Assembly: GCA_039182515.1 (NCBI GenBank)
Contig: JBCDCE010000012.1
Location: forward strand, 47 to 64,046
Length of the DNA stretch: 64,000 nucleotides
Direction: 5' to 3'
Source: Pseudomonadota bacterium
GTDB lineage: Bacteria > Pseudomonadota > Alphaproteobacteria > Rhodobacterales > Rhodobacteraceae
Positions 1,219-48,367 of the stretch are shown here, one piece after another (the stretch's first letter is position 1; each line of letters begins with the position of its first letter). The position numbers and the translations under genes were made by a program. The notes under the pieces were generated by a model. That model did no database searches, was not told the DNA's origin, and worked only from the letters and a program-made list of their open reading frames with translations.

Positions 1219-1520
1219 TAAGAAACACCCCAGCTTAATACCAAAGTTGAACTTGAGACAATGCGAATTCCTCCAGAAACAACTTTTTCGAAAAACTCGA
1301 ATTTTCTAAACGCAAAAAAGAAAAAAGACTTCTTGAAGCCGATAGACTTCTTCCATCCCTTGAATTGAAATCCACTCTCTGCGTATATGCGAATAGAACA
1401 ACCTTGCGCTATCGGCTAAGGCTTGTTTTCCTTCGGCAGACTTTCCGAATGCTAAGGAACTGCCGATATCGAAGCAAATCAATTCTCGGCAGGTATACAA
1501 AAACATCAATGCGCTTCGCA
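1..1520. other. AT-rich segment, probably the right-hand end of a horizontally acquired island that extends beyond the window
   Basis: By eye the composition changes sharply, from roughly 40 percent GC to the high-50s percent of the flanking iol genes. Codon usage is A/T-ending in 1..1218. No integrase or tRNA is visible inside the window. Confidence 0.5.
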
Positions 1521-1521
1521 T
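1306..1521 (-). CDS. Small hypothetical protein (about 71 aa), weakly supported
   Basis: Track ORF 1306..1608 trimmed to the internal Met (MRSALMFLYTCRELICFDIGSS...). It lies 87 nt upstream of the NTase-MTase gene on the same strand. No recognisable family. Confidence 0.2.
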   Translation of the reverse strand: MRSALMFLYTCRELICFDIGSSLAFGKSAEGKQALADSARLFYSHIRREWISIQGMEEVYRLQEVFFLFCV

Positions 1522-1653
1522 GAAAGGCGCGTCCCGAGCCCGGCATAGTTGCCACAAGCGTAATCCTCCGCGCGCCAGCCTAACGCGCCCACAACCTTTC
1601 TGCGGCACCCAAGGCTCAGAAGCCGGTCAAAATTAACCAGGTGTTTACCACAT

Positions 1654-1707
1654 GCATACGTTAGGCATACGTGGTGCATACATAACGGCATACGCGCCTG
1701 CGCATGC
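1654..1707. repeat. Phased GCATAC(G) direct repeats: 4 copies at 11-12 bp spacing plus a GCATGC
   Basis: tGCATACGttagGCATACGtggtGCATACataacgGCATACGcgcctgcGCATGCc. Copies start at 1654, 1665, 1676 and 1688, with GCATGC at 1702. Confidence 0.6.
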
Positions 1708-3519: not shown

Positions 3520-4500
3520 TTAAGTTTGGGTCGGGCCAGGGTGTGCCAAAAGGAAGGCATCCAGCCGTTCTTGATCAGGCATAGCAGGGGCGCACCCCGG
3601 TGTCATGACCGTGATGGACGCGCAGGCGGAGCCGCGCAAAACCGCTTTTTTCAATGCCATGCCCTCTGCCAGACCAGACATAAGCCCGGCCATGAAGGCG
3701 TCGCCTGCGCCCACAGGCTTAACGGCCTCCACGGGGTAAATCCCGGTGCGAATTTCTTCGCCCCCATGGAAGGTAATCGCGCCCTCTGCGCCCATTTTGT
3801 AGATCACAACAGCTGCACTTGTTTGGGACACCTCGCGCGCTTTATCGAGGCCATGGGCGTAGTCTCCGGCCATGAAACCAAATTCTTCATCGTTGCCCAC
3901 CACCATGTCGGAGGCCATGGCCGCTCGGGTCAGCGTTTTGCTGGCATCCTCAGAAGAGACCCATGAATAGGGGCGGTAATCCACGTCAAAAATAATCGGC
4001 AAACCAGCGGCTTTGGCCAGATCAAAGGCCCGGAAGGTCGCGGCGCGAGAGGGCTCAGCGGCAAAGACCGTGCCCGCCGTGATGAGCGCGCCAAACCGCG
4101 CATAATCCACGGCCTCAACATCCCCAACGCCCATCTGAAAGTCCGCTGCATGGTTGCGATAAATGACATTGCGATGGCCTTCGAGGACGCTTTCATACAC
4201 GGCCAAAGAGTTGCGATATTCGCCACCCACTTTGCGGATGTAATCGGTCTCAACGCCGTAATGTTGCAATCGGTTGATGCAGTAGCTGCCAATGGAATCA
4301 TCCGACACACAGGTCACCAAAGAAGCATTGCCGCCAAACTTGCAGATGCCCGCGCCGATATTGGCGGAGCTGCCGCCCAGATCCACATTGGCGCGTTCCA
4401 TATGCTCGATGGAGACATCGGGGTCGGTGAAGAAATCGATGCCTGCGCGCCCCACGATGATGAACCTGTTTTTGGCAATGCCCTCAAAGAGATCAGCCAT
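3520..4500 (-). CDS. iolC: PfkB-family carbohydrate kinase, 5-dehydro-2-deoxygluconokinase
   Basis: 326 aa with the PfkB signature KPVGAGDAFMAGL. Its start abuts the iolD stop (4501). Confidence 0.85.
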   Translation of the reverse strand: MADLFEGIAKNRFIIVGRAGIDFFTDPDVSIEHMERANVDLGGSSANIGAGICKFGGNASLVTCVSDDSIGSYCINRLQHYGVETDYIRKVGGEYRNSLAVYESVLEGHRNVIYRNHAADFQMGVGDVEAVDYARFGALITAGTVFAAEPSRAATFRAFDLAKAAGLPIIFDVDYRPYSWVSSEDASKTLTRAAMASDMVVGNDEEFGFMAGDYAHGLDKAREVSQTSAAVVIYKMGAEGAITFHGGEEIRTGIYPVEAVKPVGAGDAFMAGLMSGLAEGMALKKAVLRGSACASITVMTPGCAPAMPDQERLDAFLLAHPGPTQT

Positions 4501-6360: not shown

Positions 6361-6442
6361 AGTCTGTGTCTCCTCCCAAAGAACGCAAGCGCCCCAAACA
6401 TTTTGCCTGTTGACGGCTTCGTCAAAACCGAAGATACGGGTT

Positions 6443-6458
6443 TTGCAACCGGTTGCAA
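6443..6458. promoter_or_regulatory. Perfect 16-bp palindrome TTGCAACCGGTTGCAA, a LacI-family-type operator in the divergent iolD / oxidoreductase promoter region
   Basis: The core TGcAAcCGgTTgCA fits the generic LacI-family operator pattern TGnAAnCGnTTnCA. A second near-identical copy lies at 14836..14850. Confidence 0.7.
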
Positions 6459-6492
6459 GAATAAAGATGAACTGGGGCCTTGGGAGGAACAC

Positions 6493-7596
6493 ATGGCAAA
6501 GATCGGCATCGGCATTGTCGGCGGTGGCTACATGGGCAAAGCCCATTCCGTTGCCTTTGCGGCGGTGGGAAGCGTGTTTGAAACCTCGCTGCGCCCGCGC
6601 TTAGAGATGATCTGCGCCTCCTCGCCTGCATCCGCTGAGAGCTACCGCGCGAAGTTTGGCTTTGCGCGGGCCACGTCCGATTGGAAAGCGCTCGTGGAGG
6701 ACCCGAAGGTCGAGGCCGTGATCATTGCAACGCCCCAAAAGTTTCACCGCGAGATTGCCGTCGCAGCTTTTGCTTTGGCCAAGCCCGTTTTCTGTGAAAA
6801 GCCCCTTGGGGCCTCTCTTGAAGACAGCCGCGCGATGGTGAACGCCGCACAAGCCTCAGGTGCTGTGAACATGGTTGGCTTCAACTATGTGCGCACGCCC
6901 GCCACGCAGTTTGCGCGTCAGCTGATTGCAGAGGGTCGCTTAGGCCAGATCACCTATTTTCGCGGTGAGCATACGGAAGACTTTTTCGCTGATCCCGACG
7001 CCCCGGCTACCTGGCGCAGTTTTGGGCGGGCAAACGGCTGCATGGGGGATCTTGCGCCTCACCCCATCAATCTCGCACATGCTTTGATGGGGCCAATCGC
7101 TGAACTAAACGCCGTGATTGAAACCGTTTATCCCACGCGCGGCGGTGAGCCCGTTGACAACGACGATGCCGCCCAAATGATGCTGCGCTTTGAAAGCGGC
7201 GTGCAGGGCCATCTGATGGTCAGCCGAACCGCCACAGGGCGCAAAATGGGCTATGCCTATGAGGTGCATGGCTCCAAAGGCGCGCTCAGGTTTGACCAAG
7301 AAGATCAAAACGCCTTGCATCTCTATCTGCGTGAAGGGCCTGAGGCCGAGCAGGGCTTCCGCAAGATCCTCACAGGCCCCGCACATCCCGATTACGCCCC
7401 TTTCTGCCAAGGCCCCGGGCATGGCACGGGCTACCAAGATCAAATCATCATCGAAGCCCATGATTTCATCAAAGCCATCGAGGCCGGTCAAGCCCTGTGG
7501 CCCACGTTTGAAGAAGGCATGGCTGTGAACCAAGTTGTGGAAGCGGCATTTGCCAGCCACGACCAACGCGCCTGGGTGCGCGTCAAAGACTTCTAA
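6493..7596 (+). CDS. Gfo/Idh/MocA-family NAD(P)-dependent oxidoreductase, candidate inositol 2-dehydrogenase
   Basis: Trimmed to the ATG at 6493, preceded by GGGAGGAA. Has the N-terminal Rossmann motif MAKIGIGIVGGGYMGKAH and the EKP motif (FCEKPL). Confidence 0.8.
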   Translation: MAKIGIGIVGGGYMGKAHSVAFAAVGSVFETSLRPRLEMICASSPASAESYRAKFGFARATSDWKALVEDPKVEAVIIATPQKFHREIAVAAFALAKPVFCEKPLGASLEDSRAMVNAAQASGAVNMVGFNYVRTPATQFARQLIAEGRLGQITYFRGEHTEDFFADPDAPATWRSFGRANGCMGDLAPHPINLAHALMGPIAELNAVIETVYPTRGGEPVDNDDAAQMMLRFESGVQGHLMVSRTATGRKMGYAYEVHGSKGALRFDQEDQNALHLYLREGPEAEQGFRKILTGPAHPDYAPFCQGPGHGTGYQDQIIIEAHDFIKAIEAGQALWPTFEEGMAVNQVVEAAFASHDQRAWVRVKDF

Positions 7597-10978: not shown

Positions 10979-11748
10979 GCCGCCCCTTCGTATTCCGCAC
11001 CGGTTTTAGCACCCGTGATATAGGCCACCACGTCTTGCCCATCGGTCTCATCCTTTTTGAGGTTGGCCACGATGCGGCCGCGCCGGAACACTACGATCCG
11101 GTCCACAAGATCCATGACCTGACGCATATTGTGGCTGATCAAAATGAGCGGCTCGCCCGCCTCTTTCAGCGTGCGCACAATGTTTTCAACCTGGGCTGTT
11201 TCTTGCACCCCAAGTGCTGCCGTCGGTTCATCCATGATGGTAAGTTTTGACGGGAAGGTTGCAGTGCGCGCGATTGCCACGCATTGGCGTTGGCCGCCTG
11301 ACATGTTTTGGATCGTGTTGCGGATGTTGGGAATTTTCACAGCCGTCTTCTCAAGCCCCGCGATGGTGTCTTCGCGCATGCCTTTGTAGTCCAAAATCCG
11401 AAACGGCCCCAGCCAATTCCAAAAGGTCTTCTCGCGGCCCAAAAAGAGATTATCCGGCACGTCCAGATCATCGGCCAAGGCCAGTGTTTGAAAGACAGTC
11501 TCGATGCCCGCCTCGCGCGCATCGATGGGCCCCGCGAAATGCACAGGCTTGCCGTCAAAGATGATCTCGCCTGAGGTGCGCTGCTCCACACCCGTGATTT
11601 GACGCACGAAGGTCGACTTACCAGCGCCGTTGTCGCCCATGATGGCCACATGCTCCCCTTTGTGGAGCACGAAGTTCGCATCATTGAGGGCATGCACGCC
11701 GCCGTAGTGCTTGGTCAGGCCTTTGGTTTCCAGAATGATATCGCTCAT
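10975..11748 (-). CDS. Sugar ABC transporter ATP-binding protein (single NBD, FrcA-like size)
   Basis: Walker A GDNGAGKST, signature MSGGQRQ, Walker B LTIMDEPTAALG. Confidence 0.9.
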   Translation of the reverse strand: MSDIILETKGLTKHYGGVHALNDANFVLHKGEHVAIMGDNGAGKSTFVRQITGVEQRTSGEIIFDGKPVHFAGPIDAREAGIETVFQTLALADDLDVPDNLFLGREKTFWNWLGPFRILDYKGMREDTIAGLEKTAVKIPNIRNTIQNMSGGQRQCVAIARTATFPSKLTIMDEPTAALGVQETAQVENIVRTLKEAGEPLILISHNMRQVMDLVDRIVVFRRGRIVANLKKDETDGQDVVAYITGAKTGAEYEGAA

Positions 11749-11759
11749 CTTTCCCTCCT

Positions 11760-12842
11760 TCAGCTTCGCATTGCAGCGCGCTCTTGGCGCATTTTATCGA
11801 GAACCACAGCGGCGATGATGATCGCGCCCATGGCCATGAGTTGGTAGAAGGCATCAAGCTTGATGTAGGTGAAGCCCGATTGGATCACGCCAAAGACCAT
11901 CGCGCCCAAGACAGTGCCGATGATCGAGCCGCGCCCACCTGTGAGGCTCACGCCGCCAATAACGGCCATGGCAATTGCGTAGAGCTCGTAGAAGATCCCC
12001 ATGCCAGACTGGGCCGTGAGGTTTTTGGAGCTCAAGATAATTGCGGCGAATGCGGCGAGCATCGAAGCAATCATGTAAACGCGCACTTTATGGCGCTGCA
12101 CGTTGATGCCCGACATACGCGCCGCGTCCTCATTAGAGCCAATGGCATAGGTGTGTTTGCCGTAAAGTGTGTAGCGCAAGATGAGGTGGAAGAGCACCGC
12201 GAGCATCAAAAACCAGAAAACCGGCATCATGCCTTTGCCCAAAGCCGCGAAGCTTTCGGTTGGGAAAGACACGGGCTTGCCGCGTGTCCAGGCCTGCGCG
12301 ATGCCGCGGCAAATGAGGAACATGCCAAGGGTCGCAATGAAAGGAGGAATGCGCGTGTAGGCAATCAGCGCACCGTTTATGGCCCCAATGAAGGCCCCAA
12401 AGATCAACCCCGCTATGACCGGCACAATGACGGGTAAGTCAAAAGCCCAGGGTCCAAATACCGCCTTTGGGTTGGGGTTGCCATTAACGAGCTCTGTTTG
12501 GGCAAAAGACATCACGATCATGGCCGTGGCGCCCACCAGCGGCCCGGACGACAGATCAATCCCGCCGGAAATAATGACCTGGGTCACGCCAAGGGCGATA
12601 ATCCCAATGATCGAAACTTGAAGAATAATGATCCGCAGACGGGCTTCATTGAAGATCGAGTCGAACCGGTCGCGCGTATCGAAGAGGAAGCTTTGACCCT
12701 TCATATACGGCAGAAACTGCCCAAGAGCCTCAAAGACCGCGATGATGATGATCAGTGCGATGAAAATGTTCAGCTCATTAGGCCAAGAGCGCTTCTTGGC
12801 ATCAAACTTGAGCCCACCCGTGCCGTGCGAGGTGTCAGACAT
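11760..12842 (-). CDS. Sugar ABC transporter permease
   Basis: Trimmed to the ATG at 12842 (MSDTSHGTGGLKF...), preceded by GGGGGAGAA. Multi-TM, with the layout of ribose/fructose-type permeases. Confidence 0.85.
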   Translation of the reverse strand: MSDTSHGTGGLKFDAKKRSWPNELNIFIALIIIIAVFEALGQFLPYMKGQSFLFDTRDRFDSIFNEARLRIIILQVSIIGIIALGVTQVIISGGIDLSSGPLVGATAMIVMSFAQTELVNGNPNPKAVFGPWAFDLPVIVPVIAGLIFGAFIGAINGALIAYTRIPPFIATLGMFLICRGIAQAWTRGKPVSFPTESFAALGKGMMPVFWFLMLAVLFHLILRYTLYGKHTYAIGSNEDAARMSGINVQRHKVRVYMIASMLAAFAAIILSSKNLTAQSGMGIFYELYAIAMAVIGGVSLTGGRGSIIGTVLGAMVFGVIQSGFTYIKLDAFYQLMAMGAIIIAAVVLDKMRQERAAMRS

Positions 12843-30706: not shown

Positions 30707-32184
30707 GCGGACTTCTCACGCTTCAAAATGTCACCAAAGCCTACCCGGGCGTTGTGGCCAATGATGATGTGTTCATGGCGCTTAAATCCGGCGAGGTGCA
30801 TGCGCTCTTGGGTGAAAATGGAGCGGGTAAGTCCACGCTCGTGAAGATGATTTACGGGCTGGTTAAACCAGACAGCGGCACGATGCAGATGATGGGCGAG
30901 GCCTTCAGCCCCAAAACCCCCAATGAGGCCCGTGCGCGCGGTGTCGCGATGGTGTTTCAACACTTTTCGCTCTTTGGCGCTTTGTCGGTGGCGGAGAATA
31001 TCGCGCTTGGGATGAGCAATCCGCCAAAACTGCGGGACTTGTCGCGCAAGATCGAAGAGGTTTCTGAGGCTTACGGGCTTCCGCTGAAAGCCGGGCGTTT
31101 GGTCGATACCTTGAGCGCAGGCGAGCAACAGCGGGTCGAGATTGTGCGCTGCCTTTTGCAAGAGCCTAAGCTTTTGATCATGGACGAACCGACAAGCGTT
31201 TTGACCCCGCAGGAGGTCGATGTGCTCTTCGGAACCCTACGGCGCTTGCGCGATGAAGGAACGGCAATCTTGTACATTTCGCACAAGCTCGAAGAGATCC
31301 GAACCCTCTGCGACAGCGCAACCATTCTGCGCGGCGGCAAGGTTGTGGGCACCTGCGTTCCAGCTGAGACCTCGGCGCGCGACATGGCAGAAACAATGGT
31401 CGGTGAGCGGTTCGCCGTGCCTAAGCGCAAAACAGGTGACGTGGGCGATGTGCGGTTTGCAGCTCGAAACCTCGCGAGCGATGGTTTGCGCAACGTGAGC
31501 TTTGACGTGCTTGCAGGCGAAATTCTGGGCATCGGCGGTGTGGCTGGCAACGGACAAGACGCGCTCATGTCGGCTCTTTCAGGCGAAACGCTCAGCGCTG
31601 CGGATGCGCTCACCTTCGATGGCAAACCGATTGGCAATATGGGCGTGTCTGCGCGCCGTCTCTTGGGTGTTCTAACGGCTCCAGAAGAACGCTTGGGCCA
31701 TGCGGCTGTGCCAGATATGAGCCTTACGGAGAATGCAGCCCTATCCGGCCTTGAGCGCAAAGAGTTGGCCACAACTGGCTTTGTCAGCTGGGCCAAGGCA
31801 AAAGACTTCGCCGAAACCGTGATCCTGCGTTTTGATGTGCGCACACCGGGGGCAGGCACCGCTGCGCGCGCGCTTTCAGGCGGGAACTTGCAGAAATTCG
31901 TCATGGGCCGCGAGATCAGCCAGCAGCCTGAGGTCTTTGTGGTCAATCAACCCACATGGGGTGTGGATGCAGCCGCCGCCGCTGCGATCCGGCAAGAGTT
32001 ATTAGATCTCGCAGCGCAAGGCTGTGCTTTGGTTGTGGTGAGCCAAGATCTTGACGAGCTCATCGAAATTTCGGATCGCTTTGCGGCCCTCAATGAGGGC
32101 CGCTTGAGTGCTGCGCGGATGACCGCAGACCTGACTATGGAAGATATTGGCCTGATGCTGGGAGGCGCGGATGCTCACGCTTGA
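30703..32184 (+). CDS. ABC transporter ATP-binding protein (tandem NBDs), purine/nucleoside-type importer
   Basis: GENGAGKST, LSAGEQQR and LSGGNLQK motifs. 493 aa. Confidence 0.85.
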   Translation: MSGLLTLQNVTKAYPGVVANDDVFMALKSGEVHALLGENGAGKSTLVKMIYGLVKPDSGTMQMMGEAFSPKTPNEARARGVAMVFQHFSLFGALSVAENIALGMSNPPKLRDLSRKIEEVSEAYGLPLKAGRLVDTLSAGEQQRVEIVRCLLQEPKLLIMDEPTSVLTPQEVDVLFGTLRRLRDEGTAILYISHKLEEIRTLCDSATILRGGKVVGTCVPAETSARDMAETMVGERFAVPKRKTGDVGDVRFAARNLASDGLRNVSFDVLAGEILGIGGVAGNGQDALMSALSGETLSAADALTFDGKPIGNMGVSARRLLGVLTAPEERLGHAAVPDMSLTENAALSGLERKELATTGFVSWAKAKDFAETVILRFDVRTPGAGTAARALSGGNLQKFVMGREISQQPEVFVVNQPTWGVDAAAAAAIRQELLDLAAQGCALVVVSQDLDELIEISDRFAALNEGRLSAARMTADLTMEDIGLMLGGADAHA

Positions 32185-33259
32185 AAAACGCCCCATACCG
32201 TCAAAGCTTTGGTCTTATCTGACGCCACTCATCGCGCTTTTGCTCACTATGATTGCGGGCGGGATCATGTTTTGGCTGTTGGGCAAAGATCCTTTCGCGG
32301 CCCTGCGCACGATTTTCCTGGACCCGATCTTCAACGAGCAATTTGCAAGCTATGCGCGCCCACAACTTTTGATTAAAGCCGGGCCGTTGATCTTGATCGC
32401 GGTTGGCTTGGCCATCGGGTTTCGCGCGGGCGTTTGGAACATTGGGGCCGAAGGCCAATATATTATTGGCGCGATTTGTGGTGCAGCCGTGGGGCTTGCC
32501 TTCTACCCAACAGAAAGTTGGATCATTTTCCCGCTTATGGTGCTCGCGGGCATGGTGGGCGGTGTCGCTTGGGCGATGATCCCCGCTTTGTTGAAGGTGA
32601 AGTTCAACACCAATGAAATCCTCGTCTCGCTCATGCTCGTGTATGTGGCCCAAGAGGTTTTGTCGAAAATGGCCCTGGGGCCTTTGAAAAACCCCGATGG
32701 CGCGGGCTTTCCAGGCAGTCGCAATCTTCAACAATACCCGTCGGCTCATAACGCTGAGATCTGGGCTGGGACATCCATCCATTGGGGCATCATCATCGCG
32801 TTTTTTGCCGTTGTGGCAGGTTTTGTCTTGATGTCCCGACATAAGCTGGGCTTTGCGATCCGGCTGATGGGCGAAAGCCCAAGGGCTGCGCGGTTTGCAG
32901 GTGTCACCCCCTCTTGGATCGTCGTGATCTGTTTGGGGATTGCGGGCGGAGCCGCTGGGCTTGCGGGGCTCTTTGAGGTCTCGGGACCATCGGGCCAAAT
33001 CAGCATTGATTTTGCCTCGGGCTATGGCTTCACAGCGATCATCGTGGCCTTCTTGGGGCGCTTGCACCCCATTGGCATCTTGGCTGCCGGCTTACTTATG
33101 GGCGTAACATATATCGGCGGCGAGCTTGCTCAGTTTATGATCGGCCTGCCCTCTGCGGCGATCCAAGCCTTCCAAGGCATGCTTCTGTTCTTTCTGTTGG
33201 GCTCAGAGATCTTGATCAATTACCGCGTGCGCTGGAGCAGCGCCGCAAAGGAGGCGTGA
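32171..33259 (+). CDS. ABC transporter permease
   Basis: 362 aa, multi-TM, within the BMP-type transporter operon. Confidence 0.85.
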   Translation: MLTLEKRPIPSKLWSYLTPLIALLLTMIAGGIMFWLLGKDPFAALRTIFLDPIFNEQFASYARPQLLIKAGPLILIAVGLAIGFRAGVWNIGAEGQYIIGAICGAAVGLAFYPTESWIIFPLMVLAGMVGGVAWAMIPALLKVKFNTNEILVSLMLVYVAQEVLSKMALGPLKNPDGAGFPGSRNLQQYPSAHNAEIWAGTSIHWGIIIAFFAVVAGFVLMSRHKLGFAIRLMGESPRAARFAGVTPSWIVVICLGIAGGAAGLAGLFEVSGPSGQISIDFASGYGFTAIIVAFLGRLHPIGILAAGLLMGVTYIGGELAQFMIGLPSAAIQAFQGMLLFFLLGSEILINYRVRWSSAAKEA

Positions 33260-33262
33260 GCC

Positions 33263-34189
33263 ATGGGCAGCATTGATCCAACCCTCCTTATCGCTTCGCT
33301 CTTAGTCGCCTCAACCCCCATTCTGCTTGCAGCGCTTGGGGAATTGGTGACTGAGAAAGCGGGTGTTCTGAACCTTGGCGTGGAAGGCATGATGATCACA
33401 GGCGCGATCTGTGGCTTTGCTGTGGCCGTTGAGAGCGGCTCACCTTGGCTTGGCTTTGTTGCAGGAGCGGGCGGTGGCGCGCTTTTGTCCATGGTCTTTG
33501 CCATACTCACCCAGTTTTTCCTCTCCAACCAAGTGGCAACAGGCTTGGCGCTCACGCTGTTTGGTCTTGGGTTTTCTTCGATGATTGGTCAAGGCTATGT
33601 GGGGATCGTGCCGCCGGATGTGCCAGATGTGCCGTTTGGCGCGCTGGCTGAGATCCCGGTTTTGGGTCCAATTTTCTTTTCCCACGATGCGATGCTCTAC
33701 ATCGGATTGATGCTTGTCGTTTTGGTTTGGTGGGTGCTGCGTGCCACGCGGCTGGGGCTCGTGTTGCGCGCAGTGGGCGAAAACCATGATGCGGCTCATG
33801 CTTTGGGCTACCCCGTGCTTTTGGTGCGCTTCGGCGCGATTGCTTTTGGTGGCGCCTTGGCGGGGCTTGGCGGCGCTTACTTGAGCCTCGTGCGTGTGCC
33901 GCAATGGACCGAAGGCATGACGGCGGGTGCGGGATGGATCGCACTTGCAATTGTTGTTTTTGCCTCTTGGAGACCGATACGCGTGCTCTGGGGTGCCTAT
34001 CTTTTTGGCGGGATCACTGTTTTACAACTCAACCTCCAAGCGGCAGGCGTTGCAATTCCGGTGGAATACTTGTCCATGAGCCCGTATTTGATCACAATCT
34101 TTGTGCTCGTTTTAATGTCTGCCAGAAAAGCTGGTGGACGCTTAAATGCGCCCGAAAGTCTCGGACGCACCTTCCATGCTTCGCGCTAG
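33263..34189 (+). CDS. ABC transporter permease
   Basis: 308 aa, multi-TM, second permease of the operon. Confidence 0.85.
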   Translation: MGSIDPTLLIASLLVASTPILLAALGELVTEKAGVLNLGVEGMMITGAICGFAVAVESGSPWLGFVAGAGGGALLSMVFAILTQFFLSNQVATGLALTLFGLGFSSMIGQGYVGIVPPDVPDVPFGALAEIPVLGPIFFSHDAMLYIGLMLVVLVWWVLRATRLGLVLRAVGENHDAAHALGYPVLLVRFGAIAFGGALAGLGGAYLSLVRVPQWTEGMTAGAGWIALAIVVFASWRPIRVLWGAYLFGGITVLQLNLQAAGVAIPVEYLSMSPYLITIFVLVLMSARKAGGRLNAPESLGRTFHASR

Positions 34190-36188: not shown

Positions 36189-36983
36189 GTGAAGGACGAT
36201 AAATCCCTTCAACCTGAGTTTAGCGTCCCAGATTCTGGGGCGCTTGCTCGTTTTTATCGCTGGGTTCCAAGTGCAAGCCAGCCCGTTCCCGCGGATGCCT
36301 CTGCAGGAGGTACACTTCCGATGCGTGCGTTTCGCTACTGCGAACCCATTCGGACAGCCTCACAGATGGGCTGGTATGTGTTCCCGCCAATGGATTTCTC
36401 GTTGATTTGGGACGGGACGCGCATCAATTGGACCTGCGAAGGAGCGCCGGGATGGATGGATCTCGACAGCGCGCAATTCCCTGAATTCCCAGAACATTTT
36501 AATGCTCATGCCCCAGAAGGCATAGAAGGGTACTCTCCGCCTTTCCTAGCCTCGACCCTTGCGCAAGGTGTCTTGCAGGTTTGGTCCGGCATCGTCGCTC
36601 GTACGGCACCTGGATGGTGTTTACTGGTGCGAAACCCTGCCAATATCCCGCGTGTCCACCACGCTGAAGGCTTCGAAGGAATCGTTGAAACCGACCGCTG
36701 GTTTGGCCCACTTTTTACCAATTTACGCCTCACAAAGACCGATACTCGGGTCGATTTCCGCCGTGATCATCCCCTATTCCAAATCCAACTGATCCATAGA
36801 TCTATGCTCGACAATAAGTTGTCGCAGCGGATGGAAAAGGTTGCTGGACTGGATGAAATGACGGTAGAAGACTGGGAAGATTATCGCGCCACGATTGTGG
36901 AGCGTGTTGGTGCCAAGCGAGTGCCCGGCGATTATGCTAAGACCTCGCGAAAAATGAGGAAACGGGATGACAGTCAGGCTTAG
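36189..36983 (+). CDS. Hypothetical protein with no family recognisable by eye; candidate partner or modifying enzyme of the repeat peptide
   Basis: 264 aa from the GTG at 36189, 17 nt after the repeat-gene stop. An alternative ATG at 36321 (MRAFRYCEPIRTASQMGWYVFPP) is preceded by a strong AGGAGG. No TM segment or signal peptide. The basic C-terminal tail is KTSRKMRKRDDSQA. Confidence 0.65.
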   Translation: MKDDKSLQPEFSVPDSGALARFYRWVPSASQPVPADASAGGTLPMRAFRYCEPIRTASQMGWYVFPPMDFSLIWDGTRINWTCEGAPGWMDLDSAQFPEFPEHFNAHAPEGIEGYSPPFLASTLAQGVLQVWSGIVARTAPGWCLLVRNPANIPRVHHAEGFEGIVETDRWFGPLFTNLRLTKTDTRVDFRRDHPLFQIQLIHRSMLDNKLSQRMEKVAGLDEMTVEDWEDYRATIVERVGAKRVPGDYAKTSRKMRKRDDSQA

Positions 36984-40254: not shown

Positions 40255-42765
40255 TTACCCATCAATGCGGATCGTTGCATTCTTAGGATCATAAGGGCTA
40301 TCTTCGGTTACTTCTGCATCCCATAGCTCACCAAGCATACGCACTTTGAGCTTCGTTCCGGGCGCCGCCAGATCTTGCGGGACGTATCCCATGCCAATCG
40401 ATTTTCCAAAGGCCACAGAATACCCACCAGAGGTCAATCGGCCTACGCGCGTTTGTCCATCATAGAGCGCTTCGCGGCCCCAAGGATCAGCTCCCTCGGG
40501 CCCATCAATGAGCAACGTCACGCACATAGACCGGATCCCTTTCTCCTCCATCGCGGCTTTGCCGTAGAACTCTTTTGAAAGATCGACAAAACGCGTAAGA
40601 CCAGCTTCCAAAGGCGTCGCGTCGCGTCCCAACTCCGTGCCAAAGGCCCGGTAGCTCTTCTCTTGGCGCAACCAGTTTTGGGCGCGTGCTCCCACCAGTT
40701 TCATGCCTTCAGGTTCACCAGCTTCCATCAGCCGGTCAAAGAGGTAGTTTTGCATCTCGATGGGATGATGCAATTCCCAGCCCAGCTCGCCCGTGTAAGC
40801 CACGCGGATCGCTGTGAGGGGGCACATGCCCAGCTCGATGTTGCGCGCCGAAAGCCAAGGGAAGCGCGTGTTTGAAAGCGCGGTTTCGGGCTCCGGATCC
40901 CGGATCAGTTTGGCCAAAACGTCCCGTGATTTTGGGCCCGCTATGGCGAAGACGCCGTATTGCGAGGTAACATCGGAGATCATCACCGGTTTGCCCGTCT
41001 CAGCGTAGAAATCCTCCGCCGCTTTGATCAAGTAATCCTGGTCATAGGCCTGCCAAGCTCCTGCGCTGACAAGGTAGTAGCTGTTCTCCGCCATGCGTAC
41101 GATGGTGTATTCTGTGCGCGTGGTGCCTGCGGATGTCAGCGCATAGGTCAGATTGATCCGGCCTATTTTCGGCAGCTTGTTACAAGTGAACCAATCTAGG
41201 AAGTCTGAGGCCCCTGCCCCTTTGACCGAATGCTTTGTGAAAGCGGTTGCGTCCACGAGGCCAACGCCTTCGCGGATCGCACGTGCTTCAGCTTCAGCGT
41301 ATTGCCACCAGCCACCACGGCGAAACGAGCGCGCGTCGTGATCAAAACTGTCTGGTGCATCCAATGGGCCGAAGTAGTTCGGGCGCTCCCAACCGTTTAC
41401 CTGGCCGAACTGCGCACCGAGCGCTTTTTGCCGGTCATAGGCGGGAGCTGTTTTGAGCGGGCGGCAAGCTTCACGCTCCTCATCGGGATGGTGCAAAATA
41501 TAGACGTGTTCGTAGCACTCTTCATTTTTGCGCATCGCATAGTCTGTGGTGATCCAGTTGCCGTAGCGCTTTGGATCCAGGCTCGCCATATCGATCTCGG
41601 CTTCACCTTCGACCATCATCTGCGCGAGGTAGTGCCCCGTACCGCCAGCAGCAGTGATACCAAAGGAGAAGCCCTCCGCCAGCCACATGTTCCGCAAGCC
41701 AGGTGCTGGACCAACAAGTGGGTTCCCATCGGGTGTATAACAGATCGGACCGTTGTAGTCGTCTTTAAGACCAACCGTTTCCGAGCTTGGGATCCGGTGG
41801 ATCATGGACATATATTCTTCTTCGATCCGTTCCAGATCGAGCGGGAAAAGATCTGCCCGGAAGCTCTCAGGCACACCGTATTCAAAGCGTGCAGGCGCAT
41901 TGCGCTCATAGGGGCCAAGGATCCAACCACCGCGTTCCTCGCGCACATACCATTTGGCATCCGCATCGCGCAGCACAGGGTGCTCACCATTGGTTTTACG
42001 CCATTCCACCAGCGCGGGGTCTGGCTCTGTGACGATATACTGGTGCTCAACGGGGATCGCGGGGCTCTTAATGCCCAAAAGCTGCGCGGTGCGCTGAGAA
42101 TGGTTACCTGAAGCCGTCACGACGTGCTCGGCCGTGACAACCACCTGCTCTTCGCTCGTAACCAAATTGCCGCCGCGTTCGACCATTTTTGTGAGCGTGA
42201 CCTTCCACTCCGACCCAGTCCATTCATAGCCATCCGCTTGCCAGCGCTGTTCGATTGTCACACCGAGCTTACGCGCCCCCGCAGCCATCGCGTTGGTTAC
42301 GTCAGCGGGGTTAATATAGCCGTCAGTTGGGTGATAGATCGCCCCTTCAAGGTCTTCTGTTCGCACAAGCGGAAAACGCTCTTTTATCTGGGCCGGTGTC
42401 ATCCATTCATAAGGCACGCCACAGGTTTCGGCTGTGGCTGCGTAGAGCATGTATTCGTCCATTCGCGCTTTGGACTGCGCCATACGCAGGTTGCCCACCA
42501 CATAAAACCCAGGATCCTGGCCAGTTTCCTCTTTCAGCGTTTTATAAAACTTGATCGAGTAATCATGGATGTGGGTCGTGGCGTAAGACATGTTGAAATA
42601 CGGCAAGAGCCCTGCCGCATGCCATGTGGAGCCCGCTGTAAGCGCATCGCGCTCGATCAGCATCGTATCCCAGCCCGCTTTGCCGAGATGATAGGCTATA
42701 GACGTACCAACGGCCCCGCCCCCAACGACCAAAGCTTTTACGTGGGTTTTCATTTGGGTTTTCAC
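40255..42765 (-). CDS. Dimethylglycine/sarcosine-dehydrogenase-family protein (FAD oxidoreductase plus GcvT-like folate-binding domains)
   Basis: KALVVGGGAVGTSIAYHL FAD motif and a C-terminal aminomethyltransferase-like region. The start is set at the GTG at 42765, preceded by GAGGAG. The ATG at 42753 is an alternative. Confidence 0.85.
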   Translation of the reverse strand: MKTQMKTHVKALVVGGGAVGTSIAYHLGKAGWDTMLIERDALTAGSTWHAAGLLPYFNMSYATTHIHDYSIKFYKTLKEETGQDPGFYVVGNLRMAQSKARMDEYMLYAATAETCGVPYEWMTPAQIKERFPLVRTEDLEGAIYHPTDGYINPADVTNAMAAGARKLGVTIEQRWQADGYEWTGSEWKVTLTKMVERGGNLVTSEEQVVVTAEHVVTASGNHSQRTAQLLGIKSPAIPVEHQYIVTEPDPALVEWRKTNGEHPVLRDADAKWYVREERGGWILGPYERNAPARFEYGVPESFRADLFPLDLERIEEEYMSMIHRIPSSETVGLKDDYNGPICYTPDGNPLVGPAPGLRNMWLAEGFSFGITAAGGTGHYLAQMMVEGEAEIDMASLDPKRYGNWITTDYAMRKNEECYEHVYILHHPDEEREACRPLKTAPAYDRQKALGAQFGQVNGWERPNYFGPLDAPDSFDHDARSFRRGGWWQYAEAEARAIREGVGLVDATAFTKHSVKGAGASDFLDWFTCNKLPKIGRINLTYALTSAGTTRTEYTIVRMAENSYYLVSAGAWQAYDQDYLIKAAEDFYAETGKPVMISDVTSQYGVFAIAGPKSRDVLAKLIRDPEPETALSNTRFPWLSARNIELGMCPLTAIRVAYTGELGWELHHPIEMQNYLFDRLMEAGEPEGMKLVGARAQNWLRQEKSYRAFGTELGRDATPLEAGLTRFVDLSKEFYGKAAMEEKGIRSMCVTLLIDGPEGADPWGREALYDGQTRVGRLTSGGYSVAFGKSIGMGYVPQDLAAPGTKLKVRMLGELWDAEVTEDSPYDPKNATIRIDG

Positions 42766-42915
42766 AGCGCTCTCCTCGCGATCTGACGCAGACGGACGAC
42801 CCAAAAGGTCTCACGCTATACTGTGGCGCAGACACGACGTTTTCGCCGGAACTGGCCCGACCGGTTCCGACATGAAACCGACATCCCTCATGTCTGGGGG
42901 TTGAAGCAGCCTTTG

Positions 42916-43749
42916 CTATTCAAATCGGCAGATTTTCCGCGCGCCCTCTTGTCGGCATACATTTTGCTTGGCGACCGGTGCTTCTGTGGCGTTTGACTGA
43001 CCCTCTGTTATGTCGGAGTTTGAAGGGCTTGGAATAGGCGAAGCGAGGCCCGGCGCCATATTTTGACGCGACGCTGAGATGCCTTCTGTCGGCAACATCT
43101 TTGTTGGTGTTACTGGGGTCAGGCTTTCTAAAAGGGCCAAAGCATCTGCTTGGGATCCAGAGGTATGGACATAGGCCAAAGTCTCGTCACCAAAGTAGGC
43201 TCCAAAAGTCCGCGCCCCTTCAACAAGCGGCGGCAATTCCAAAACCAAGGCTGAATTCGTGTCTTCTAACGTTTTGAGCGCGTTGCTTACGTCGGTATTG
43301 CGCATGAGTCTCAGGATGCTGGTTTTGACATTTGGATCAGCCACTTGGGCTTTTTCGCCTAGATGCCAAAGCACCATGGTTTGCGACCCCTTTTGGTAGA
43401 AGGCTTCGCGCAAAAAATGCGTGGCGTAAGCTCCCTGCCCACCGAGCTTTCGCAGCCCCCGAAGTGTGGAGGCGTACATGAGCCCGTCGTTTGTCGAAGG
43501 GCGCTTACCTGTCAGTTTCCTGAGATCCAAAAACTCGCCTTCGGTCACGCGCCAATCGCCCAGATCACCGCCCCTTGCTTCTACCTGCAAGGCGGGCTCT
43601 GGGGTTGGTTTCAAAGGCTGGTCGCTGCTTTGGGAGAGATTGGTTGCAACCGGCTCCGATTTCGCTGGCTTGTCGCCGGATAATAGCAAAGCTGCGCCAA
43701 TTCCCAAACTCGCCACAATGGCTAAAGCTCCAAGGTATACGCCTTGCAT
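42916..43749 (-). CDS. Membrane-anchored protein of unknown function, paralogue 1, ending in the CRQEGARKICRFE tail
   Basis: ATG at 43749 preceded by GGGAGG. N-terminal TM segment VYLGALAIVASLGIGAALLL. C-terminus ...PVAKQNVCRQEGARKICRFE-stop. Confidence 0.7.
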   Translation of the reverse strand: MQGVYLGALAIVASLGIGAALLLSGDKPAKSEPVATNLSQSSDQPLKPTPEPALQVEARGGDLGDWRVTEGEFLDLRKLTGKRPSTNDGLMYASTLRGLRKLGGQGAYATHFLREAFYQKGSQTMVLWHLGEKAQVADPNVKTSILRLMRNTDVSNALKTLEDTNSALVLELPPLVEGARTFGAYFGDETLAYVHTSGSQADALALLESLTPVTPTKMLPTEGISASRQNMAPGLASPIPSPSNSDITEGQSNATEAPVAKQNVCRQEGARKICRFE

Positions 43750-43896
43750 CGGCACCTCCCAAATTACCCTTCAAATTTGGGATTTGGTGTGGAGCAGTGT
43801 TTCGGCACCAATGAGGCATAAATGCGAATTCTGCCAGGGCGGCCACAAATACCACATAATATCTGAGACTTAACTCAGAAAACCCGCCATTTTAGA

Positions 43897-44574
43897 TCAG
43901 TTGAACTTACACACCTTGCGGCCATTTTGCTGGCGGCATTTGGCAACTTTGCTCGGCTTGGGTGCAGCTTCGACCTGCACGGTTTCTGCTTCTTTGCCCA
44001 AAAACGCGCTGCGCAGCGCGTCAAAGTCGTAAGTTTTGAGGACATTCCAAGTTTCAGCTTCGCTGGCCGTGCTGACCACATCAATCGCGATTTCGTCCGC
44101 CACGAGCGCCATGTAACGATCTGCGCCACTTTTATCACCGTTTTCGGCAGGTACCTTATAGAAGCGCACGCCTTCACGTTCGCCCAAAACGGAAACCCGT
44201 TTTTCACCTTTGAGCTCTGTGGATTTAAACTTTCGCTCAAAGTCAGCCAGAAGCCCTTGTGCCGCTTCCTTCTCATCAGCACGACGTTGCGTGAGCATCA
44301 CCACTTCGCCGCCGCGCAGATAAGTCGCGGTTTGGGCAGCCGTTTCTGCGGTTTGGGTCGAGACGTGCTCGATTTTGCCGAAATCCAAACTCCAGCCCTC
44401 AGGAACTTCTGGAAGCGCGTCCATAAACACCGTTTGAACGTCCTGCGCTTGCTCCCAAGCGGAGGGCTGGCCAGCTGTAAGTTGCGCGTCGGGTGTGAGG
44501 TGATCAAGATACATGGCACCGCCGACCAGCGATGCAGCCACACTCGCAAACCCTAATGTCGTCCAAATAGACAT
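43897..44574 (-). CDS. Membrane-anchored protein of unknown function, paralogue 2, ending in the CRQQNGRKVCKFN tail
   Basis: ATG preceded by AAGAGG. N-terminal TM segment IWTTLGFASVAASLVGGAMYL. Carries a PEGW motif. C-terminus ...SKVAKCRQQNGRKVCKFN-stop. Confidence 0.7.
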   Translation of the reverse strand: MSIWTTLGFASVAASLVGGAMYLDHLTPDAQLTAGQPSAWEQAQDVQTVFMDALPEVPEGWSLDFGKIEHVSTQTAETAAQTATYLRGGEVVMLTQRRADEKEAAQGLLADFERKFKSTELKGEKRVSVLGEREGVRFYKVPAENGDKSGADRYMALVADEIAIDVVSTASEAETWNVLKTYDFDALRSAFLGKEAETVQVEAAPKPSKVAKCRQQNGRKVCKFN

Positions 44575-44738
44575 ACTAATACCTCTTTTACACGGGCAGT
44601 GATTACGCCATGGTCAGAGCCATCCAATGACGGCGCAGAGGTAAAATTAAGACAATTTGAGCAAATAGTCCGACGGTTTACTGCATCATAGTAATTTACC
44701 GGGCGCAACCAGCCAAATAACGTGGCAAAACAGCGACG

Positions 44739-45800
44739 CTATTCAAATCGACATATTTTGCGCCCGTTCTCCTGGCGGCATGTATTGCGCTTGGCCACAG
44801 GCTGGGGTGTCGTTGCGGCCTCGTCAGCCGCTTTCGCGTTTACTTGGGCTGCACCGCTCGCACTGGATAGGTCCGACAAATCATTCAGGTTTATGTCGCT
44901 ACGTGACGCCTGTATTGCTAGATTGGCCACCTCAACAGCAGCAGCACCCGTCACCCCAGCATCTGGTCCGGGAGTACCTCCGAGTTTGTAGGCAAAGCCA
45001 GTCCCTAGGCGATAGCCTAGTGTAGGTTCCGGCAAAACGTCTTGGAGTGCTGCGATATCTAATCCCTGTACAACTGTCGCGATATCCGCATCAGAGGCGT
45101 TGGTGATGATTTCGAATTCATAGACATGCCCCACAGTCAAACTGAGACGTCGGAAATCCACAGGTTCTTCTTCAAAAGAGCTTGTAAGACGCATCTTTTG
45201 GGGGTGAAGCCGAAGAGGATGACCATCAAGCGTCGCGAGTACAAGTTTGGGCCCACCTGGATTTTCAGCTAAGAGCGCTTTTCTTTCCAGCGCCGATCCT
45301 GTTGCCAAGGTCCGAAAACTATCAAGCTCAGCATAGGCGCGCATCTGCACCATACGCACGCCTTTGGTGTAGGTTGCGACCGCTCCCAGCGACTTGCGCT
45401 TATCTGTCTTTACAAAATCGGAGATCATCGCATGCAATTCCCCTTCGTACAAAGGGGACGGCTCGTAATCAAAAGAAGTCAGCCATTCGGTTTGCGCAAG
45501 GTCAAATGCGGTCTTTTCCCACCCTTCTGGCGCAGGTGGCATGGCAGTTTTGAGGGCGATGGGGCTCGTCCGAAATACTCCGCTGCTGAGATCTCGCGCG
45601 GTTTTGGCCAAGCCAGCCAACCCGCGTTTTCGACGGGAGGTGCCCTGATCTGCATCCGTCAAGGCATCGACTGTCTGCGTGATTTCTTGTTGGACGAGTG
45701 CCCGCCCACCGTTGTCGGCGTAGCGTTCAAAGGCCATGAAACCCGCCACCAAAACAAGCAATCCGCCCAATCCTGCAATAGACAACGCTAATGCGCGCAT
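44739..45800 (-). CDS. Membrane-anchored protein of unknown function, paralogue 3, ending in the CRQENGRKICRFE tail
   Basis: Trimmed to the ATG at 45800, preceded by GGAGG (MRALALSIAGLGGLLVLVAGFMAF). Carries a PEGW motif. C-terminus ...PVAKRNTCRQENGRKICRFE-stop. Confidence 0.7.
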   Translation of the reverse strand: MRALALSIAGLGGLLVLVAGFMAFERYADNGGRALVQQEITQTVDALTDADQGTSRRKRGLAGLAKTARDLSSGVFRTSPIALKTAMPPAPEGWEKTAFDLAQTEWLTSFDYEPSPLYEGELHAMISDFVKTDKRKSLGAVATYTKGVRMVQMRAYAELDSFRTLATGSALERKALLAENPGGPKLVLATLDGHPLRLHPQKMRLTSSFEEEPVDFRRLSLTVGHVYEFEIITNASDADIATVVQGLDIAALQDVLPEPTLGYRLGTGFAYKLGGTPGPDAGVTGAAAVEVANLAIQASRSDINLNDLSDLSSASGAAQVNAKAADEAATTPQPVAKRNTCRQENGRKICRFE

Positions 45801-45953
45801 GGAATATGCCTCCGTTCCCACTTTGACCTCAGAAACGAGATACAATTGTCGGTTGTACGACCGCATTTGGGCAAGATTGCGTTACTTGCTCTTGTTCAGC
45901 ACCTCGCCTAGTACCTGCTCCAGGGGCGAACTTGGCTCCAGAAAGGTTTCGCG

Positions 45954-46796
45954 ATGCGTGTCACGCGCTCAATCCAGGCCACACGTGAGGTCTTGGCCCA
46001 CGCAAATGGTCCTAAGGCCCTTGTGCCAACCATGGGTTTTCTGCACGCGGGGCACATCGCTTTGGTCGAGGCCGCCAAGGAGCGCGCTGCGCATGTGTCG
46101 GCCACTATTTTTGTAAATCCCACGCAATTTGGCCAAGCTGCTGACCTCGACGCCTACCCACGCGATGAAATCCGCGATCTTCACATGTTGGAGAAAGCCG
46201 GCGTCGATTTGGTGTTTATCCCCGAAGTGGGCGAGATCTACCCAGAGGGTGACGAGACTATTGTCGAGACCACACAGATGGCCAACATGCTGCATGGCTT
46301 GGTGCGGCCCGGCCACTTTCGAGGTGTCACGACGGTCGTTTCGCGGCTCTTTAATATCTTCAGCCCAGACATTGCGCTGTTTGGCGAAAAGGATTTTCAG
46401 CAGCTCCAAGTCATCAAGCGGATGGTTCAAGATCTGCATTTTCCGCTTGAGATCATTGGCGTTCCGACTGTGCGCGAACCGGACGGTCTTGCGATGTCCT
46501 CGCGCAATGTGCGCCTGAGTGCAGAAGAGCGCAAAGCCGCATTATGTTTGTCGCAAGCCCTTGATGCAGCCGGCGAAGCGCAGTCCATTTCCGAGCTCGA
46601 GCAGATCATACGCGCCAAGATTGACGCCGAGCCGCGCGCGCATCTGCGCGGTCTCGACATTGTGGAGGCGTCTAGCCTCCAACAGCCCACCGGGCATCCA
46701 TCCGAGCCAATTGCCGTTATGTTGTCAGTGGAGGTCGGCCCCGTTCTGTTGATAGATCAGCGCGTCTACCCGCCCCTGGGCAACGAGCGGATTTGA
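45954..46796 (+). CDS. panC: Pantoate--beta-alanine ligase
   Basis: VPTMGFLHAGH motif. 280 aa. Confidence 0.9.
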   Translation: MRVTRSIQATREVLAHANGPKALVPTMGFLHAGHIALVEAAKERAAHVSATIFVNPTQFGQAADLDAYPRDEIRDLHMLEKAGVDLVFIPEVGEIYPEGDETIVETTQMANMLHGLVRPGHFRGVTTVVSRLFNIFSPDIALFGEKDFQQLQVIKRMVQDLHFPLEIIGVPTVREPDGLAMSSRNVRLSAEERKAALCLSQALDAAGEAQSISELEQIIRAKIDAEPRAHLRGLDIVEASSLQQPTGHPSEPIAVMLSVEVGPVLLIDQRVYPPLGNERI

Positions 46797-46810
46797 TGAA
46801 AGGTTAACTC

Positions 46811-47620
46811 ATGAGCAAGCAAACCCAATCGTTACGCCGCACGACGGTGCCTCAAATCGCGGCGCGCAAAGGCGGCGAGCCGATCGTCTCGCTCACATCC
46901 TATCACGCGCATACCGCTGCAATCGTCGACAAATATGCCGACTTCATTCTGGTCGGCGATAGCCTCGGCATGGTGATGCACGGCATGGAAACCACCGTTG
47001 GCGTGCCGCTTGATTTGATGATCATGCACGGCAAGGCCGTGGTCCGCGGGACCCAACAGGCGCTGATCGTCGTCGACATGCCCTTTGGCACCTACGAAGA
47101 AAGCCCCAACGTGGCGTTTCGAAATGCCGCCAAGATCATGAAGGAAACCGGCTGTGGGGCTGTGAAGCTTGAAGGTGGTGCCCGCATGGCCGAGACGATC
47201 ACGTTTCTCACCGAGCGCGGCATTCCGGTTATGGCGCATATCGGCCTCACACCGCAGTCGAGCCATGTGATGGGCGGGTTCAAAACCCAAGGGCGCGATG
47301 AAGATAGCTGGGCCGCCCATGAAGCGGATGCAAAAGCCGTTGCGGAGGCTGGCGCGTTTGCCGTCGTGTTGGAGGGCATGGTCGAGCCGCTGGCCGCCAA
47401 GATCACCAAGCAAATTCAGATCCCCACCATCGGCATTGGAGCCTCTGCGGATTGCGACGGACAAATCCTTGTGCTCGAAGACATGCTTGGGCTAAACGCC
47501 TGGACCCCTAAATTTGTGAAGGTTTACGGCGATCTTGGTCCGCAGATTGAAGCTTCGGTGAAGGCCTATGCTGAAGAGGTACGAGACCGCAGCTTCCCAG
47601 GACCCGATCAAACGTATTGA
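46811..47620 (+). CDS. panB: 3-methyl-2-oxobutanoate hydroxymethyltransferase
   Basis: 269 aa, ..[12 protein letters not shown].. and ..VKLEGG.. motifs. Follows panC. Confidence 0.9.
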
Positions 47621-47689: not shown

Positions 47690-48367
47690 TTGACTATGGT
47701 GCATTTCACGCTCCCAGAGGCCGCGCGCTTGGCGCTCGCAAGTTACAAACCAAACAGATTTCCCGATCTGAAGGCCCAAATTCTCACAAGCCTTAACGAA
47801 AAGCACGTTCAGGCTCATTATCTGGAAAATGATGTGCTTTTGGTCCCTGGAAGCAATTCGCTCTTTGACTATGTGCTCTACAATCTGCGCATCTTCCGCG
47901 TGGGCGGCACGCGCTACCGCGTGGTGGATTCAAATACCGAGCGTGATGATCGCACCAATATGCGTTGGCACCAGGGGTTTCTGGCGCATGCGCATGTCGT
48001 GATCAAATGGCTCGAAGACGATCCAAAGCTCAAAGGCAAAAAACCCAAATTTATCATTGGGCATTCACTAGGGGCGGCCAGTGCGCAGCTTTTGGCGATG
48101 GTTTATGATTGCCCAACAATTACCTTCGCGGCCCCGCGAACGCGTACAGATCCCCACACATCGTCGCGTGGAGACAAGTGCCTCAATATTCTGCGCTCAG
48201 ATGATCCAGTTTGTAAGTTACCGAGCAGTTTTCACCACATCGGTCTAAACCATGAATTGCAGCCTGCTCCCAAAAAACTGGTGGGCCGCCATCATATGAG
48301 CAAATACATTTGGCTACTCGACAACCACAAACCCGGCCCAACACTGCCGCCTAGGTGGCCGCTTTGA
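47690..48367 (+). CDS. Class 3 lipase-like alpha/beta hydrolase
   Basis: Nucleophile elbow GHSLGAA. 225 aa. Confidence 0.6.
   Translation: MTMVHFTLPEAARLALASYKPNRFPDLKAQILTSLNEKHVQAHYLENDVLLVPGSNSLFDYVLYNLRIFRVGGTRYRVVDSNTERDDRTNMRWHQGFLAHAHVVIKWLEDDPKLKGKKPKFIIGHSLGAASAQLLAMVYDCPTITFAAPRTRTDPHTSSRGDKCLNILRSDDPVCKLPSSFHHIGLNHELQPAPKKLVGRHHMSKYIWLLDNHKPGPTLPPRWPL

Follow-up and report, generated by a model that had tools for sequence, protein, structure and literature searches.

What is the function of a short, positively charged tail with two cysteines that ends three otherwise diverged proteins encoded side by side in one genome? The question is raised by three genes, here called A, B and C, on the minus strand of a 64,000 nt stretch of DNA (the window) from a member of the Rhodobacteraceae (Pseudomonadota bacterium, assembly GCA_039182515.1, contig JBCDCE010000012.1, positions 47 to 64,046 of the forward strand). 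The answer put forward here, which is given an even chance of being correct, is that A, B and C represent a family of anchored periplasmic proteins in which a cationic hairpin, stapled by a disulfide and held on a flexible tether, acts as a docking element. The features of the three genes are as follows (residue numbers refer to the encoded proteins; AF2, AlphaFold2; pLDDT, predicted local distance difference test).

42916–43749, minus strand: gene A, an open reading frame (ORF) of 277 aa, NCBI AAGD04_04795, the most diverged paralogue; anchor at about residues 4–24, core at about 60–212, Pro/Ser-rich linker at about 213–258.
42919–42975, minus strand: tail of A, VAKQNVCRQEGARKICRFE, with the Cys pair C265–C274 at 42928–42957.
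43897–44574, minus strand: gene B, an ORF of 225 aa, the compact paralogue; anchor at about residues 3–25, core at about 55–192.
43900–43950, minus strand: tail of B, KVAKCRQQNGRKVCKFN, with the predicted hairpin C213–C222 at 43909–43938.
44739–45800, minus strand: gene C, an ORF of 353 aa, identical to NCBI 'MAG: hypothetical protein AAGD04_04805' (MAG, metagenome-assembled genome; Pseudomonadota bacterium); it adjoins the divergent panC gene and is, by synteny, the positional orthologue of the main-family gene.
45726–45794, minus strand: anchor of C, about residues 3–25; Kyte–Doolittle maximum 2.28, AF2 helix 2–27, flanking charges in favour of an N-in/C-out orientation.
44991–45560, minus strand: predicted alpha/beta core domain of C, about residues 81–270, with PEGW, ATYTKG and TNASDAD motifs; pLDDT >90.
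44799–44990, minus strand: low-complexity linker of C, about residues 271–334; pLDDT 48–77.
44742–44798, minus strand: tail of C, VAKRNTCRQENGRKICRFE, with the predicted hairpin C341–C350 at 44751–44780.

A first-pass annotation of this region had described three consecutive minus-strand genes of 277, 225 and 353 aa, and the ORFs were found as it gave them. They lie in tandem with intergenic gaps of about 150 bp, and each has a Shine-Dalgarno-like sequence of its own before the start, AAGAGG in the case of B and GGAGG in those of A and C. Translation of C from an ATG further upstream, at 45866 (open frame 45801–45866), would yield 375 aa; judged from its GGAGG ribosome-binding site and its agreement with the deposited protein, the ATG at 45800 (353 aa) is the start of C. 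A scan of the three genes for promoters and terminators gave counts not above those of shuffled sequences. As had been noted in the annotation, the proteins each begin with a hydrophobic segment, the only one they contain, with 19-residue Kyte–Doolittle maxima of 2.2 (A), 1.4 (B) and 2.3 (C), and alignment places PEGW in B and C and an ATYxKG-like segment in all three. All three share one layout, in which the N-terminal anchor is followed by a diverged core, a linker of low complexity and, at the C-terminus, the tail. The tails read as previously described and share the consensus CRQxxxRK[IV]C[RK]F[EN]-stop. When back-translated, this pattern matches the window three times and 100 shuffles of it not once, and it is absent from every other reading frame of the window; none of the other window ORFs belongs to the A/B/C family.

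Similarity among the three proteins by BLASTP is significant only in the tail (plus PEGW in B and C), with E-values of 2e-9 for A–C, 1e-8 for B–C and 2e-4 for A–B. Homology of the bodies was tested with anchor and tail both removed, in order to avoid circularity. The body of C scores 214 bits against a hidden Markov model (HMM) of the family built without the window genes. Profile–profile comparison (hhalign) ties B-type bodies to the core of the main family with a probability of 96% (E 1.5e-9) and A-type bodies with one of 81% (E 1.2e-5), the weakest of the three. Through these ties to the family core of C, the genes A, B and C are identified by profile comparison as true, old and diverged tandem paralogues. 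The codons of the three tails differ at many synonymous positions, so that the likeness of the tails must have been kept by selection on the protein; recent gene conversion is excluded by this divergence. Relatives of each paralogue were found in other samples: a full-length homologue of A (P0008, E 5e-10), an orthologue of B (P0004, 41% identity) and, on contig L014 (JGI 3300003882, contig Ga0063280_1032421), a 350 aa counterpart of C. The last contig carries, at 470–2377, a tandem pair of C-like and B-like genes, both hairpin-tailed, in the same chromosomal slot as in the window (described below) and with no A-like gene, which implies that the duplications are older than the split of this MAG from the L014 organism.

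In all three orthologue pairs, the tail is better conserved than the body. In the orthologue pair of C, 10/13 tail positions are identical compared with 100/308 in the body; the corresponding values are 9/13 and 45/232 for A, and 7/13 and 73/180 for B, i.e., 54–77% for tails and 19–41% for bodies. The tail, which had been claimed to be a shared module more conserved than the rest of the proteins, is thus seen from these comparisons to be one, and to be selectively maintained. That it might be an artefact confined to a single lineage, an outcome that would have spoken against a shared module, is rejected, as it occurs in orthologues from other samples. The description of an invariant tail set exactly at the C-terminus stands for A, B and C and has to be relaxed for the family. 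In a column table of 14 distinct tails, 14/14 have the first cysteine (C1), Gly as residue 5 or 6, K/R8, the second cysteine (C10) and a hydrophobic side chain at 12, giving the general form C-x3-[turn with Gly]-x-[K/R]-x-C-x-hydrophobic; the turns read NG, GA, GG, DG, LG or AG, and 3–9 residues of variable sequence lie between the second cysteine and the stop. A basic P-x-V-[KR]-[KR] motif is found 0 to about 13 residues upstream of C1. The module is 13–19 residues long, with a net charge of +2 to +4.

A conserved element near the C-terminus, better preserved than the body and preceded by a conserved basic motif, could serve, as PEP-CTERM, GlyGly-CTERM or LPXTG do, as a signal for sorting or processing at which a dedicated enzyme would cleave or attach the protein, and a sorting tag was among the functions considered in the annotation. 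Signals of this kind consist of a motif, a hydrophobic helix and a basic cluster, and work with a dedicated enzyme or secretion system; the type IX secretion system C-terminal domain (T9SS CTD) is a beta-sandwich of 70–100 aa. The tail resembles these signals, and MYXO-CTERM, in its C-terminal position and in being better conserved than its cargo, and none of the components just listed is seen in A, B or C. It comprises 13–19 residues after a disordered linker, a hydrophobic C-terminal helix is absent, the last 13 residues are polar and charged, the stretch after the second cysteine varies in length and sequence, and the proteins already have an N-terminal anchor. No Pfam or NCBIfam model matches A, B or C at E up to 1. 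The NCBIfam library holds models of the named C-terminal sorting domains, and the view that the tail is none of these is upheld. Among ORF ends in the approximately 219 kb examined, the generalised motif was found in family members only, and positional orthologues that have no tail exist (see below). The co-occurring processing enzyme that had been envisaged was not found either: over about 10 kb at each of about 10 loci, there is no gene for a protease, a sortase-like or rhombosortase-like enzyme or any other candidate for processing the tail. A sorting or processing signal is therefore highly improbable.

The shape of the tail was predicted with AF2, as the annotation had suggested, from two independent models, of C and B, built on the family alignment (23–24 sequences). 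In C, strands 340–344 and 347–351 are joined by a two-residue NG turn (pLDDT about 80–90) and C341 faces C350; in B, strands 212–216 and 219–223 are joined in the same way (pLDDT 82–90) and C213 faces C222. The tail is accordingly modelled as a two-strand, cationic beta-hairpin with cross-strand cysteines. A, B and C have exactly two cysteines each, both in the tail, and in all tail-bearing members the tail pair provides the sole cysteines outside the anchor. The family bodies, excluding anchor and tail, contain 3 Cys in 7045 residues, compared with about 94 expected at the window's 1.33%. Near-total depletion of cysteine together with one paired Cys-Cys element is the pattern expected of exported proteins with a single structural disulfide. 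The tail pair is thus probably closed by an intramolecular disulfide, and the closed Cys-x8-Cys loop envisaged earlier is plausible on both counts.

The same cysteines might instead act between chains, as intermolecular disulfides of homodimers or among A, B and C in the way of phage spanins, or each pair might form half of a shared metal site. Each protein has exactly the two cysteines this would call for, and the near-identical tails of three co-located paralogues could pair with one another. However, in both AF2 models the eight-residue spacing and the two-residue Gly turn set the thiols side by side within one hairpin, and there is no conserved His, Asp or Cys that could serve as a third or fourth ligand. 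Hetero-pairing could not be the general role in any case, since in most relatives the locus contains only one family gene. Pairing between chains, or metal sharing, is on balance unlikely.

The charges that flank the anchor bear on where the body lies. Across the family, the N-flank is net +1 to +2 with no acidic residues, and in most members the stretch of 15 residues that follows the anchor has a net negative charge, so that by the positive-inside rule an N-in/C-out orientation is favoured and body and tail would be periplasmic. The opposite orientation, with the C-terminal part in the cytoplasm and a reduced Cys pair with a role such as redox sensing, draws on the weak positive-inside signal of A and B, neither of which has a basic residue before the anchor. 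It is opposed by the flanking charges of the family as a whole, by a body of 200–400 residues that is nearly free of cysteine next to one strictly paired Cys-Cys element, and by the weak fold neighbours of the core, most of which are extracytoplasmic. A cytoplasmic tail is very unlikely.

These neighbours were obtained from the modelled core, which has pLDDT >90 over residues 81–270 of C; the model of B shows the same topology in reduced form, and in both models the anchor is a helix. Foldseek searches of the PDB with the two models gave best matches at E 0.025–0.05, template modelling score at most 0.4 and identity 8–15%, none of them significant. They are mostly extracytoplasmic alpha/beta sandwiches (RseB, PsbP, DcrB, TiME and MTC28). 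The RseB N-domain/LolA-like and PsbP/Mog1p/DcrB-like folds and the mycobacterial TiME and MTC28 are open sandwiches that all lie outside the cytoplasm and have an antiparallel sheet with flanking helices; with no significant match, membership in any of these groups is not established. The core is therefore best described, from the models, as an alpha/beta domain without a significant PDB neighbour. A sequence-profile search of the PDB with the family also found nothing significant; the one match to a 'pilin' there (E 0.14) covers the hydrophobic N-terminus. Type IV pilins do resemble these proteins in having an N-terminal anchor, in being exported and in a C-terminal disulfide loop (the loop disulfide being a probable one here). 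The N-termini of A, B and C (MQGVYLGALA, MSIWTTLGFA and MRALALSIAG), in contrast, show no class III signal, G/(F,M)xxxE motif, N-methylation motif or Glu5, and there is no Pfam pilin match. Pilin D-regions are longer and form part of a globular head.

How far the module extends beyond the window was assessed with an exhaustive HMMER profile search using the alignment of the three paralogues, a search the annotation had proposed. It gave 19 further cluster representatives (E 1e-21 to 1e-3), nine of which carry the Cys-x8-Cys module; more tails were found on L012 and L014. The family layout comprises the N-terminal anchor, a core of about 170–200 aa, an optional helical domain and, after a low-complexity linker, the optional Cys-x8-Cys module, so that four architectures occur: core alone, core with helical domain, core with hairpin, and core with both. 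The core is marked by the motifs P[ED]GW, ATYxRG, (PV)xYRRF and TNASDADxxxxLxGxD. The helical domain, of about 130 aa and ending in LLP, has no Pfam match and no counterpart in A, B or C. It reads RAYxxLxDG...IAxGxIxDW...LLGPEP...LLP, with an apparent internal repeat, in the long members P0005, P0006, P0010, P0012, P0015, P0019, P0020, P0021 and the L012 gene at 4294–5691. Many family proteins, with or without a hairpin, end in -DG (TDG, SDG, NDG or ESDG), e.g., P0010, P0011, P0013, P0015, P0019 and the L013 gene at 5803–6801.

No characterised family claims these proteins. A Pfam search of 23 members at a permissive threshold returned no match and no recurrent weak family, and a literature search found nothing relevant describing the family. 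The family is new to databases; the disulfide beta-hairpin itself is a known structural element. The named members are confined to Yoonia sp. R2331 and Ostreiculturibacter nitratireducens, and a search with a seven-sequence alignment returned two genome loci, both from 'uncultured Rhodobacteraceae bacterium', and no viral loci. On these named members, the family has provisionally been seen only in Rhodobacteraceae. The census is a shallow one, consisting of one exhaustive search from a divergent trio and of genome and metagenome scans limited by the pattern used. The strict back-translated tail pattern had no match in 185,579 species genomes and none in viral contigs, and its six matches in metagenome contigs are all chance ones, in low-GC DNA with tiny open frames; the metagenome contig set was incomplete here, as L014, which bears a matching tail, was not returned. 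Word-indexed protein searches (with C alone, with the tail only and with a 22-sequence alignment) were uninformative rather than negative and returned little beyond the source records AAGD04_04805 and AAGD04_04795; C by itself recovered only itself, the tail-only search gave one candidate and no hit, and the 22-sequence search gave three proteins only, its candidate list being saturated by low-complexity words. The proportion of members with a tail is provisionally about half, bearing in mind that truncation may account for the missing tail in some of the metagenomic representatives; for P0020 and the L013 gene, completeness was verified.

Genes with and without the tail occupy corresponding places in the genome. 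The flanks of the slot in the window are:

40255–42804, minus strand: DAO-FAO_M-GCV_T protein (Pfam), dimethylglycine/sarcosine dehydrogenase-like (DMGDH-like), the downstream neighbour of A, B and C on the same strand.
45954–47620, plus strand: panC-panB pair (Pfam), the divergent flank of the slot, given for context only.

At every locus examined, a DMGDH-like gene follows downstream of the family gene or genes on the same strand, directly adjacent in the window, L002, L005, L008/9, L013 and L014, and separated by one or two genes in L004 and L012; in L011 the downstream gene is partial and has no domain annotation. The divergent panC-panB pair often adjoins the family gene (window, L001, L002, L003, L004, L012). 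The same slot is occupied by genes that have a tail (P0019, P0022, P0009, P0015 and the L012 gene) as well as by genes that have none (P0020 and the L013 gene), so that these are positional orthologues. Their sequences show the module to be optional in the family, and a search behind the tail-less genes of L002 and L013 for a frameshifted remnant of the hairpin found none that was credible. Conservation extends to the wider backbone (Bmp-type ABC transporter, aldo-keto reductase, DAO, 2-hydroxyacid dehydrogenase, M3 peptidase and ThiF), and adjacency to the DMGDH-like gene may therefore reflect inertia of gene order rather than an operon. The DMGDH-like protein, though a conserved neighbour, is at most a candidate member of the A/B/C system. 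A phage or other mobile origin of the region was considered and rejected, as it is part of the housekeeping backbone and has no viral matches.

Some smaller features recur in the slot. A gene for a Lipase_3-like protein (217–225 aa) lies beside the family gene in the window (47690–48367, plus strand), L012 (6173–6826, minus strand) and L013 (5060–5713, minus strand), irrespective of whether the family gene has a hairpin. In L004, the family gene, which bears a tail, is separated from the DMGDH-like gene by a DM13-domain gene (11389–11862, minus strand); a 189-aa ORF of L012 (5688–6257, minus strand) is placed similarly, and there is none comparable in the window.

In the arrangement proposed here, each family protein would be a bitopic inner-membrane protein with a cytoplasmic N-terminus of 1–7 residues, a single transmembrane anchor and a periplasmic alpha/beta core, followed by a flexible low-complexity tether and the C-terminal mini-module. 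The mini-module would fold as a two-strand beta-hairpin with its cysteines opposite one another, to be closed by a disulfide under the oxidising conditions of the periplasm. A rigid, cationic hairpin on a leash could then act as a docking knob that attaches to the surface of a partner through charge and strand addition, rather than as a sorting or cleavage signal. Candidate partners are an open beta-sheet of the same protein or of a paralogue, or a component of the envelope.

This proposal is closest in plan to TonB and TolA, which likewise have an anchor at the N-terminus, a tether of low complexity that is rich in Pro and Ala, and a small element at the C-terminus. The C-terminal element of TonB docks on its partner by beta-strand addition. 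There is no similarity in sequence or fold to these proteins, however, and the C-terminal element of the family is one of 13–19 residues rather than a domain. The family also has a folded core between anchor and tether, and no ExbBD or TolQR genes are adjacent in the window.

The tail itself is closer in shape to certain host-defence peptides. Thanatin, bactenecin and the ranid 'Rana box' peptides have one Cys-Cys loop at the C-terminus with few residues after the second cysteine, and thanatin-type peptides share with the tail, as predicted by AF2, a two-strand hairpin, a tight turn and a net positive charge. The loops of these peptides are shorter than that of the tail, e.g., six residues in thanatin. 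Thanatin-type peptides are free, secreted, animal host-defence peptides, whereas the tail is the end of a bacterial membrane-anchored protein of 225–460 aa. There is no sequence homology and no sign of release or antimicrobial action, so the analogy is one of shape only. Thanatin is a hairpin of 21 residues with one disulfide that binds LptA (PMC11395501).

Its size, charge of +2 to +4 and shape, together with the basic pair upstream, would also allow the hairpin to be freed by proteolysis after the basic motif and to act as a free cationic disulfide peptide, either as an antimicrobial like thanatin (PMC11395501) or as a signal. The loci contain no export, immunity or protease gene to go with such a peptide, C1 lies anywhere from 0 to about 13 residues beyond the basic motif, and the precursor is a membrane protein in a conserved housekeeping slot, not in a biosynthetic cluster. 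Release as a free peptide is extremely unlikely.

Several observations weigh against the docking proposal. The complete orthologues that have no module (P0020 and the L013 gene) indicate that it is dispensable for the core role of the family, and linker lengths that range in A, B and C from about 15 to about 75 residues are a poor fit to one target at a fixed distance. A and B, as said above, have no basic residue before the anchor, and topology and disulfide are both inferred from sequence and model. The confidence of the modelled hairpin may be due in part to the strong pattern of turn and cysteines in an alignment of little depth.

A wider version of the docking proposal can be drawn by analogy, in which the hairpin would be a modular envelope-docking element of Rhodobacteraceae, of a sort not described before, that grips a periplasmic or outer-membrane partner by strand addition. 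A possible target would be the open edge of a beta-jellyroll, as thanatin uses on LptA, and leashes of about 15, 45 and 65 residues could let the three paralogues reach one target from different distances. This wider version is speculative and rather improbable. If a docking element is confirmed, it would represent a binding tag for the periplasm that is both minimal and transferable, and it could lead to a new interaction in the envelope; if not, the proteins still form a well-delimited family of unknown function that merits a database entry. The family has no Pfam or NCBIfam model, and its named members all belong to the Rhodobacteraceae, a group abundant among marine bacteria; for the core, despite a model of high confidence, there is no significant neighbour in the PDB. 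The family also provides a clean natural experiment, in which some positional orthologues have a 13-residue, probably disulfide-closed hairpin and others do not, while this genome carries it in triplicate. Current understanding is not overturned by these results.

Further features of the window lie outside the slot. A DUF6065 protein is encoded at 36189–36983 (plus strand), upstream of a run of MFS transporter, aldo-keto reductase and DAO oxidoreductase genes. The region 32001–34000 shows a strong AT skew (-0.27) over two BPD_transp_2 permease genes of the Bmp-type ABC transporter, likely due to the codon composition of membrane proteins. The left end of the window (1–1700) contains no convincing ORF and no tRNA or Rfam match, and its GC content is about 0.45 (bases 1–2000), compared with about 0.57 elsewhere.

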